Assembly (NCBI RefSeq): GCF_003018255.1
Contig: NZ_CP027440.1
Strand: one strand, 5' to 3'
Origin: Escherichia coli
Lineage (GTDB): Bacteria; Pseudomonadota; Gammaproteobacteria; Enterobacterales; Enterobacteriaceae
DNA: 64,000 bases
Below, in pieces: positions 61,561 to 62,838 of this stretch; the stretch's first letter is position 1; each line of letters starts with the position of its first letter. The notes below the pieces were generated by a model, which saw only the letters and a program-made list of their open reading frames with translations, had not been told where the DNA came from and did not search any database. The position numbers and the translations under genes are program-made.

Positions 61561-61773
61561 TTAAGAGAGATAAACATTTGCCGCTGTTGGTCCTCGCAGG
61601 CCATTTACGCGGCAAAATTCCACGCGTAATCCTGGTATAAGCACTTCTGCGTCGCGGGGAGTGAATGCGGAAATATGGACCTGGACTTCTTTACGACCGT
61701 CGGAGGGGATAATGAATCCTTTGCCGCTTTTGCGATCAAAGGTTTTGACAATTCCTGTCATTTTACGGGACAA
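61561..61773 (-). CDS. cspH: cold-shock-domain protein CspH
   Basis: 70 aa; [23 protein letters not shown]. Confidence 0.92.
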
Positions 61774-62058
61774 ACAAATTCCTTACTGAAAATACTGCGC
61801 TGCACTATACGGGGTTAATAAAATAAAGCCAGCGATATTTAAGACCGCCGGACGGCTAAAATAAAATTTGCTTAATCTCAATTATCATGCGTTAATAGCT
61901 GCGTCGGTTTGAAAGACAGACAGCATACAAAGTAGTTTACTAAAGCAGTTCTCATTATCAGGCATTATCCCCTTCTTTTGAGTCTCTCTCCTGAACACTA
62001 AGTAGTTTCTGTACTAAAGCCCTGTTTGCCGAAAGGCCCAAAATGAAGGAAGTAAAAT

Positions 62059-62271
62059 ATGTCTAATAAAATGACTGGTTTAGTAAAATGGTTTAACGCA
62101 GATAAAGGTTTTGGCTTTATCACTCCTGATGATGGCAGCAAAGACGTTTTCGTCCATTTCACCGCCATCCAGAGCAATGAATTCCGCACGCTGAACGAAA
62201 ATCAGAAAGTTGAATTTTCTATTGAGCAGGGGCAACGTGGTCCCGCGGCAGCGAACGTTGTTACGCTCTAA
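62059..62271 (+). CDS. cspG: cold shock protein CspG
   Basis: 70 aa; [23 protein letters not shown] (RNP1 motif). Confidence 0.95.
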
Positions 62272-62470
62272 GGTTGCCGTTATTACTCCACATCTCCATT
62301 TCCGCTGTCCATGTTGTCATGGTTCACAGTACCGCACATCGGCATTCGATGTGACGGAGCGAAATCCTTTAGGGGCAAAGTGTATTTTTTGTAAATCGAC
62401 GATGATCACCTTTGATAACGTCGCGCTGCAAATACGCACTGACCATGCGCCGCTGGATTTCACAAAATAA
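62237..62470 (+). CDS. ymcE: small Cys-rich protein YmcE; start codon uncertain (non-ATG)
   Basis: ORF track 62210..62470; contains ...[21 protein letters not shown]...; no in-frame ATG near 5' end, GTG at 62237 chosen. Confidence 0.5.
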
Positions 62471-62664
62471 TATCAGGCTCCCTCGTGGAGCCTTTTTTAT
62501 ATCTGCCTTATTTTTCTTCAACGCTGTATGTATAGTAAGCGATAACCTGTTGATTATTGAATCTTTCGGGGAGATGGCTTATAACATTTCTTACCTGACC
62601 AGGGTACCGGGAACCAACACCTTACTGGCGTGTTGCTGTCTTTCAAGACCAGAAGAGGTTAACA

Positions 62665-62838
62665 GTGAATATTGAAGAGTTAAAAAAACAAGCCGAAACG
62701 GAAATCGCTGACTTTATCGCGCAAAAAATCGCCGAGCTGAACAAGAATACAGGGAAAGAAGTCTCTGAAATTCGCTTCACCGCACGAGAAAAAATGACCG
62801 GGCTTGAAAGTTATGATGTCAAAATCAAAATAATGTGA
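62665..62838 (+). CDS. gnsA: GnsA (57 aa; GTG start; below the ORF-track cutoff)
   Basis: read from DNA: (M)NIEELKKQAETEIADFIAQKIAELNKNTGKEVSEIRFTAREKMTGLESYDVKIKIM. Confidence 0.85.
   Translation: MNIEELKKQAETEIADFIAQKIAELNKNTGKEVSEIRFTAREKMTGLESYDVKIKIM

Follow-up and report, generated by a model that had tools for sequence, protein, structure and literature searches.

The cysteine-rich reading frame behind Escherichia coli cspG is ymcF, a gene with an AUU start codon that covaries with the presence of an upstream csp gene

Directly behind the cold-shock gene cspG of Escherichia coli lies a short cysteine-rich reading frame, which lacks an ATG near its 5' end and which, when followed upstream, remains open into cspG itself. 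Which gene is this, at which codon does its translation begin, and how is that codon used in a cold-shock operon? These questions are addressed here for a window of 64,000 nucleotides of E. coli DNA (contig NZ_CP027440.1), in which the locus lies close to the 3' end. Of 5426 complete E. coli genomes, 5393 carry the 1-kb region around it, and in two of these the sequence is 100% identical.

Read mechanically from stop to stop, the frame occupies 62210..62470 on the plus strand (86 codons), and the first codon in the list of open reading frames is the TTG at 62210. A GTG is found in the same frame at 62237, the stop codon of cspG ends at 62271, and the earliest in-frame ATG is codon 65 of the frame, at 62402. 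In all these respects, including the lack of an ATG near the 5' end, an earlier note on this DNA is confirmed by the sequence. The sequence TGTCCATGTTGTCATGG, found once, is at 62306-62322. The note had also named the frame ymcE, and this name must be given up. Its product matches the Pfam family PF23641 ('YmcF-like') with 162.6 bits (cut-off 27, E = 2.4e-48), and the match, which is above the gathering score, is full-length, with YmcF residues 2-62 aligned to model positions 2-62. RefSeq places 'cold shock small protein YmcF' at 62282..62470 in a 100%-identical genome, while the YmcE models (PF15939, NF007379) give no match on the product of 62210..62470 and instead match 62445..62675, whose product begins MRRWISQNN, with 185.7 bits (PF15939) and 186.8 bits (NF007379). 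The cysteine-rich frame is, almost certainly, ymcF and not ymcE. The coding features of the locus are then the following.

62059..62271, plus strand: cspG coding sequence, 70 amino acids, ATG start, TAA stop at 62269-62271
62210..62281, plus strand: mechanical 5' extension of the ymcF frame, 24 codons, 62 nt of it inside cspG, not coding in the ymcF frame
62282..62470, plus strand: ymcF coding sequence, 62 codons plus TAA, from PF23641 and variation dominated by third codon positions
62445..62675, plus strand: ymcE coding sequence, 76 amino acids, ATG start, sharing 26 nt with the 3' end of ymcF in a different frame

The gene ymcF, its position and its ATT start are already known from RefSeq, the K-12 annotation and Pfam. 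The K-12 counterpart (b4723, 1051684..1051872) has the same place behind cspG, the same length of 189 nt and, as in RefSeq, the same ATT start, and encodes a protein that is about 95% identical; the allele in the window has P3 where K-12 has Q3, and GTT instead of ATT as the codon before the start. In all, there are 137 YmcF homologs.

The true overlap at this locus is that of ymcE with the last 26 nt of ymcF. The gene ymcE (b0991; PF15939, NF007379) adjoins ymcF on the same strand, but its protein is unlike YmcF: it is hydrophobic, starts with ATG, lacks the CxxC pair and is read from a different ORF in a different frame. Starting within the 3' end of ymcF, ymcE carries the terminator hairpin of ymcF (62475-62501). 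By tblastn it is found essentially in Escherichia only. In E. whittamii (L006) and in Escherichia sp. E1V33 (L046) the match falls apart into two HSPs, which suggests a frameshift, and in E. coli E69 (L004) the identity is just 55%. The status of ymcE as a constrained protein gene looks weak. Two further neighbours have unusual starts. The gene gnsA (62665-62838, plus strand) begins with the GTG at 62665 and overlaps the end of ymcE by 11 nt, and cspH (61561-61773, minus strand) is annotated from the TTG at 61773 with an ATG four codons in; UUG mRNAs were reported to have an advantage over AUG mRNAs at 20-30 °C (PMC5499595).

Where, then, does ymcF begin? In RefSeq and in K-12 the start is the ATT at 62282, 10 nt past the cspG stop. 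The earlier note had instead let the frame open inside cspG, with translation from a GTG or a TTG or coupled to cspG termination. Taken literally, this describes an out-of-frame overlapping gene of 70-86 amino acids, starting at GTG 62237 or at a TTG within cspG. It agrees with the frame being open from 62195 in Escherichia and with the 70-72 amino acid forms that some pipelines annotate in Citrobacter, Kosakonia and Salmonella. These readings can be separated by comparison, since a frame that is translated in the overlap should be kept open and should be constrained as protein in related species. The comparative set, anchored on the conserved core, contains one locus per species, with 80 Enterobacteriaceae species retained of 191 genome hits; 81 loci were compared, and 29 of them form an aligned subset with the csp stop at -13.

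Upstream of ATT 62282 the frame is neither kept open nor constrained as coding sequence in the relatives. The closest in-frame upstream stop is found between -12 and -246 across the loci, and between -12 and -33 in many species, so that an extension towards cspG cannot belong to the protein in those species. The candidate start codons are not conserved either. GTG 62237 is confined to Escherichia, the corresponding codon being AAA elsewhere; the position of TTG 62258 holds TCG, TGG or TAG in 13 of the 29 loci; and in five species a TAG stop stands at the position of TTG 62222, so that translation cannot begin at TTG 62210 in them. That the 24 codons of the extension are open is in itself unremarkable, as the probability of this by chance is (61/64)^24, or about 0.3.

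The pattern of variation points the same way. In the 29 aligned loci, the positional entropy in the overlap (-72..-14) is 0.25, 1.39 and 0.43 at ymcF-frame positions 1, 2 and 3, so that variation falls on ymcF-frame position 2, which is the wobble position of cspG, and there is no coding constraint in the ymcF frame. From the ATT onwards the corresponding values are 0.33, 0.14 and 1.13, which is the wobble of ymcF; the frame switches exactly at the ATT. Downstream of this point the 62-codon core is intact in 81 of 81 loci (57-64 codons). Interruption of the frame in most relatives, which had been put forward as what would refute the gene, is thus found for the 5' extension and not for the core.

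The start codon is itself conserved. Nearly all 81 loci have ATT, ATC or ATG at the position that corresponds to 62282, and in the few exceptions an ATG is at most three codons away. Among the 29 aligned csp-adjacent loci this codon is ATT in 26 and ATC in 3, followed by ACT as second codon in 28 of them, as also in many ATG-type loci. ATT or ATC further starts ynfQ and the homologs in phage Tritos, Symbiopectobacterium and Phytobacter palmae, so an AUU/AUC initiator at the mapped start is conserved across species. Stand-alone ymcF homologs have their ATG exactly at the position of ATT 62282, which is also where the Pfam model begins. From the frame switch at the ATT, the upstream stops and the conserved start codon it follows that ymcF begins at ATT 62282 without overlapping cspG, and we consider this start very probable. 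The apparent overlap with cspG is, on the comparative evidence, an artefact of mechanical ORF extension, and an overlapping gene read from a GTG or TTG within cspG, already largely refuted, has become very improbable. What remains of the earlier proposal is the unconventional start, which is an ATT, already annotated and now supported by comparison, and the coupling to cspG, which is plausible and has indirect comparative support.

The surroundings of the ATT suggest how it may be used. The relevant features are as follows.

61903..62325, plus strand: match to the cspA thermoregulator (Rfam RF01766; 155.1 bits, gathering score 78, E = 3.7e-42)
62269..62273, plus strand: TAAGG, in which the cspG stop merges into AAGG (62270-62273), a Shine-Dalgarno-like sequence 8 nt before the ATT
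62282..62284, plus strand: ATT start codon of ymcF, from RefSeq, the K-12 annotation and homologous codons
62428..62508, plus strand: sub-threshold STnc220-like match (34.1 bits, gathering score 60, E = 7.8e-4), covering the 3' end of ymcF and the terminator
62475..62501, plus strand: intrinsic-terminator-like hairpin (7 bp, 5 GC) with a T-run, 5 nt after the ymcF stop

The RF01766 match spans the cold-shock leader of cspG, the cspG coding sequence and the first 44 nt of ymcF, and the hairpin at 62475-62501 is the probable end of the cspG-ymcF transcript. The same junction, TGAGG followed by 10 nt and ATT, is found behind cspI in the Qin prophage, where it precedes ynfQ (b4724), the paralog of ymcF, and stop-AGG plus 10 nt plus ATT recurs in the phage Tritos homolog. 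With the csp leader match, the terminator-like hairpin and the ynfQ parallel taken together, cspG-ymcF looks like a bicistronic cold-shock unit.

At the junction, TRAGG (R = A or G) is present at -13..-9 in 29 of 29 csp-adjacent loci, with the second base alone varying, and together with the 10-nt stop-to-start spacer this gives the layout of a translationally coupled pair. The two G's of TRAGG lie outside the coding sequence of cspG and must be conserved for another reason; the conserved AGG would most simply be a weak Shine-Dalgarno sequence 8 nt from the AUU. Coupling could in principle also arise by unmasking, when a hairpin hides the Shine-Dalgarno sequence and the AUU until the upstream gene is translated. 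Such a hairpin was considered and dropped: the minimum free energy in E. coli has a z-score of just -1.57, RNAalifold gives no consensus structure at the csp-ymcF junction, and two named junction helices pair in 58% and 68% of cells, which is no better than controls slid by ±3. On these predictions, coupling of the unmasking type has no support from a conserved RNA fold between csp and ymcF.

The 3' end of ymcF also has a possible second role. STnc220 (RF02077) is a Salmonella sRNA family, which scores 102 bits, above threshold, in S. enterica diarizonae L017 (1647-1726), and the match in the window may correspond to an sRNA derived from the 3' end of the csp-ymcF transcript. One could then ask if the frame is translated at all, or is just the 3' untranslated region of cspG and the source of such an sRNA, as STnc220 covers the ymcF 3' end and terminator in Salmonella and has its weak match in the window. 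The strong dominance of variation at third codon positions, the frame intact in every one of the 81 loci, and homologs that are recognisable down to about 45% identity with invariant cysteines speak against this, while a 3'-end sRNA is compatible with coding. We regard an untranslated frame as next to inconceivable.

A more informative pattern appears when the start codon is compared with the presence of a csp gene just upstream.

csp stop 12-13 nt upstream (in one case 32 nt), 40 loci: ATT/ATC only in 40, ATG available in 0
no adjacent csp, 40 loci: ATT/ATC only in 4, ATG available in 36
csp fused in frame, 1 locus: ATT/ATC only in 0, ATG available in 1

Counted by genus, ATT/ATC to ATG is 13:0 for csp-adjacent and 4:15 for non-adjacent loci. 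A naive Fisher test gives p = 3e-18 when phylogeny is ignored, and the association is phylogenetically confounded; a neighbour-joining tree, short as it rests on only 120 nt, puts the state with ATG and no csp in at least 4 to 6 separate places. The upstream contexts of these loci differ among lineages, and their ATG usually stands behind AGGAG. In Enterobacter, Leclercia, Lelliottia and Silvania, ymcF comes straight behind a csp-like leader with no csp ORF between (L063-L083, L044, L050, L052, L053, L069, L070, L075; about -190..-1). These loci share the blocks CGGTTTGA, AAGCA and GCC..AAAGGCCCA, after which come a small ACGTTTTTACGT hairpin and AGGAG-ATG. By direct alignment and blastn the case for a csp-like leader is moderate, consisting of the shared blocks and individual blastn E values of about 8e-4; the Rfam cspA model was discarded as a leader test for the ATG-type homologs, because it is mostly coding sequence and matches only loci with a csp ORF. 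In the Enterobacter-type loci, ymcF would apparently be a stand-alone cold-shock gene. In the Klebsiella oxytoca group and Raoultella (L032, L033, L036, L045, L047, L051; region -40..-1), a remnant of a csp 3' end (…GAATGTTGTAGC…) precedes an ATG-started ymcF, with no adjacent csp ORF. Atlantibacter has ATT and then ATG.

The single fused locus belongs to C. sedlakii NBRC 105722 (L012 1297-1689), where a 19-nt deletion at the csp 3' end creates an in-frame csp-ymcF ORF of 130 codons; an assembly error is possible for this fusion. With csp in frame with ymcF there is no termination upstream, and the ymcF start position is ATG, where related Citrobacter have ATT.

A strict rule by which csp adjacency means ATT was dropped when divergent members were sampled. 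A csp-adjacent homolog starts with ATG in a Morganella phage, in Franconibacter and in Phytobacter sp. V91, and in some of the family such an ATG also has a strong Shine-Dalgarno sequence; the reverse exceptions, ATT or ATC without an adjacent csp, are the Pseudescherichia group, C. freundii M-21 and Cedecea. The association is accordingly a strong tendency within Enterobacteriaceae only. In Franconibacter daqui (L088 1608-2610), a DEAD-box helicase with a DbpA domain lies directly downstream of the csp-ymcF pair, which in this one genus places a gene for RNA remodelling beside the operon. A correlation between start codon and csp adjacency was not found in the literature searched, in a search that was incomplete.

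To see what the pattern may mean, consider how an AUU codon would perform in the cold. In vitro, AUU mRNAs are the most cold-sensitive and the worst competitors against AUG mRNAs at low temperature; AUU is the most IF3-sensitive start, extra IF3 inhibits AUU mRNAs selectively, and cold raises the ratio of initiation factors to ribosomes (PMC5499595). Ordinary 30S initiation at an AUU would, for these reasons, be a poor route of expression in the cold. This paradox of an AUU start on a cold-shock gene was likewise not found in the literature searched, again incompletely.

The mechanism that we propose is the following. The gene ymcF would be the second cistron of a cspG-ymcF cold-shock transcript, which has the csp-type thermoregulatory leader at its 5' end and the hairpin 62475-62501 at its 3' end. 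The cspG stop sits within UAAGG, and the AAGG in it, 8 nt before the AUU, may serve as a weak Shine-Dalgarno sequence. Initiation would occur at AUU 62282, 10 nt past the cspG stop, and the open frame that reaches back into cspG would be left untranslated. Ribosomes fresh from termination on cspG, which is heavily translated, would be the main users of the weak AUU, and YmcF would be made only alongside CspG and at a low, fixed ratio to it. The explanation as a whole, i.e., a cspG-ymcF cold-shock cistron with an AUU start and a zinc-ribbon product, we consider probable. As for its separate parts, the covariation of ATT and ATG with csp, together with poor AUU initiation in the cold, favours termination-reinitiation coupling of ymcF to cspG, and this coupling we give an even chance; the start-codon covariation suggests, and does not prove, reinitiation coupled to csp termination. 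For the family at large coupling is not required, since there are csp-adjacent homologs with ATG and homologs with ATT or ATC in the absence of csp. Direct data on the initiation site, the N-terminus or the expression of YmcF itself were not found in the literature searched, which was incomplete.

The main competitor is independent, IF3-gated initiation, as in infC. The 30S subunit would then bind the AAGG and start de novo at the AUU with no need for cspG translation, and the rare codon would make YmcF synthesis inversely sensitive to IF3 or would merely throttle it. The conservation of AUU/AUC, as in infC, fits this well, and so do the invariant Shine-Dalgarno-like AGG, whose GG is not constrained by cspG coding, the few loci that keep ATT or ATC without an adjacent csp, and the selective repression of AUU mRNAs by added IF3 with the cold-induced rise in the ratio of initiation factors to ribosomes (PMC5499595). 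It leaves unexplained, however, why loss of the adjacent csp has nearly always gone with a change from ATT to ATG, and under it a cold-induced gene would be hardest to translate at the very time of its transcription. We consider de novo initiation unlikely as the main route.

A step further than coupling as such is the tentative idea, to which we give somewhat less than an even chance, that the AUU/AUC of ymcF and ynfQ in Enterobacteriaceae is an evolved coupling device, by which YmcF is made almost only by ribosomes that have terminated on csp and escape full scrutiny by IF3. If this is true, a low ratio of YmcF to Csp is hard-wired by the start codon, and lineages that lose the upstream csp must turn AUU into AUG and gain a strong Shine-Dalgarno sequence. 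Then ymcF and ynfQ would also offer a natural system, replicated by evolution, in which to study how ribosomes reinitiate after termination and how faithfully start codons are selected in the cold.

The short distance between the genes also invites a different reading, namely that a CspG-YmcF fusion protein is made by programmed +1 frameshifting or by readthrough at the cspG stop. The gene ymcF is in the +1 frame, and wherever the csp stop lies at -13, no stop in the ymcF frame intervenes before the ATT; the end of cspI, CUU UGA G, resembles the prfB site, the cspI-ynfQ junction being CTT TGA GG; and C. sedlakii has the 130-codon fusion ORF in its genome. The final sense codon of csp is, however, CTC in 18 of the 29 loci and GTA, CGC or CAC in others, none of which is slippery, and the site has no upstream Shine-Dalgarno sequence, so that the combination of CUU_UGA and Shine-Dalgarno sequence known from prfB is not found. 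Furthermore, the stop is offset by -12 (in frame, in Kosakonia), -13 or -32, with spacers of 13-18 nt elsewhere, which fits no single mechanism, the homologous position never lacks a start-type codon, and there are stand-alone homologs. A fusion by frameshifting or readthrough is rejected as highly improbable, and we return to initiation at AUU 62282 as the source of a separate YmcF protein.

What kind of protein is this? Its two predicted metal knuckles are:

62306..62317, plus strand: first knuckle, C9-P-C-C12 (C-P-x-C invariant in the family), from conservation
62381..62392, plus strand: second knuckle, C34-I-F-C37, from conservation

The family is small, with 42 cluster representatives at E<=1e-3 among 1.84 billion, and its members come only from Enterobacterales and from a few phages of these bacteria. 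In 43 diverse members, C9, P10, C12 and C37 never vary, and C34 is conserved to at least 90%; Q16, R18, S20, N28, G31, A32, I35, F36, K38 and M41 are invariant as well, and the C-P-x-C … C-x-x-C set is accompanied by the blocks GSQYR and GAKCIFCK. The middle cysteine of 'CPCC' and the histidine are not conserved in the family, from which it follows that the ligand set is CPxC…CxxC, i.e., two CxxC knuckles with four predicted ligands. An AlphaFold model based on 24 close homologs was unusable (pLDDT 57); AlphaFold2 rerun with the 43 diverse sequences gives residues 11-40 a pLDDT of at least 90, with a tail of low confidence. The top fold matches of this core, with weak scores, are the zinc ribbons of TFIIE and TFIIB, and an independent AF3 model of YnfQ has a rubredoxin-like topology (PMC13348028). 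A sequence-profile search of the PDB returned short, non-significant knuckle matches only (E 0.014-1), to the CPxCHG of UvrA and to the Rieske box II CPCHGSQY, at YmcF residues 8-16 (62303-62329). The Rieske resemblance was not counted as evidence, box I being absent and the extra cysteine not conserved.

The small zinc-ribbon-like peptide of the earlier note is therefore still the best structural reading, with the invariant CPxC…CxxC and the weak top matches to TFIIE and TFIIB behind it, and a four-cysteine metal ribbon is likely in view of the models. YmcF would be a protein of about 7 kDa, in which the four invariant cysteines would most likely coordinate a single metal ion, as part of a zinc-ribbon core at about residues 7-42, followed by a variable and probably disordered tail. 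From its context, YmcF may act in cold adaptation, perhaps on RNA or on the ribosome. The ribbons with which it can be compared are TFIIE-alpha, the N-terminal ribbon of TFIIB and NrdR, as well as rubredoxin-like knuckle proteins.

The relatives of ymcF outside the cspG locus extend this picture. Cold-shock induction has been listed for ynfQ (PMC11228462), and tagged YnfR (YnfR-SPA), from the small ORF just downstream of ynfQ, rises strongly after cold shock (PMC6001520). In K-12, ynfR (L084 8189-8254) has 21 codons, starts 2 nt past the ynfQ stop and crosses the hairpin of the terminator, similarly to ymcE behind ymcF (window 62445-62520). As YnfR is cold-induced across a hairpin, transcription and translation must pass this terminator in the cold. 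Care is needed with names. The 37-amino-acid 'YnfQ' in Table 1 of VanOrsdel et al. 2018 (PMC6001520) is ynfT of the current RefSeq, at K-12 1632890-1633003 (L084 2891-3004), and YnfU, considered as a paralog of YmcF, belongs to a different family (PF23499), the true paralog being ynfQ. A YnfU-family gene (PF23499) is found in Phytobacter palmae (L090 61-231, minus strand), about 470 nt upstream of csp-ymcF on the opposite strand, which echoes the ynfU/cspB neighbourhood in the K-12 Qin prophage, where YnfU is the other small Cys-knuckle protein.

Among the phage records with homologs (H14-H17, H19), the ymcF/ynfQ homologs in the lambdoid E. coli phages mEp460_ev081, 2H10, PhiR63_1 and PhiR42_1 are unannotated, and in phage HannyBb a hypothetical ORF on the opposite strand is annotated over the locus. 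They have probably been missed since gene callers ignore ATT starts.

The main value of this analysis is a correction, as the frame is a mislabelled gene that had already been annotated. Its start codon nevertheless invites comparison with known systems. The AUU of infC is a sensor of infC's own product. The AUU of ymcF is unlike it, as the stop of a very highly translated gene precedes it by 10 nt, and it gives way to AUG when that neighbour is lost. Like ymcF, infC, which encodes IF3, and pcnB have a phylogenetically conserved AUU/AUC, and AUU is discriminated against by IF3 (PMC5499595). A study from 2017 counts these two as the AUU-initiated genes of E. coli (PMC5499595); ymcF and ynfQ add two to this set, and they do so in cold-shock operons, where AUU is the initiator that performs worst in vitro. 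With termination-reinitiation pairs, cspG-ymcF, as a candidate for such coupling, shares a short distance from stop to start, a Shine-Dalgarno-like element over the end of the upstream gene and a weak start. The comparative pattern, with AUU or AUC where a csp stop lies just upstream and AUG where it does not, leads to a simple hypothesis on termination-reinitiation and IF3 proofreading in the cold, which can be tested directly.
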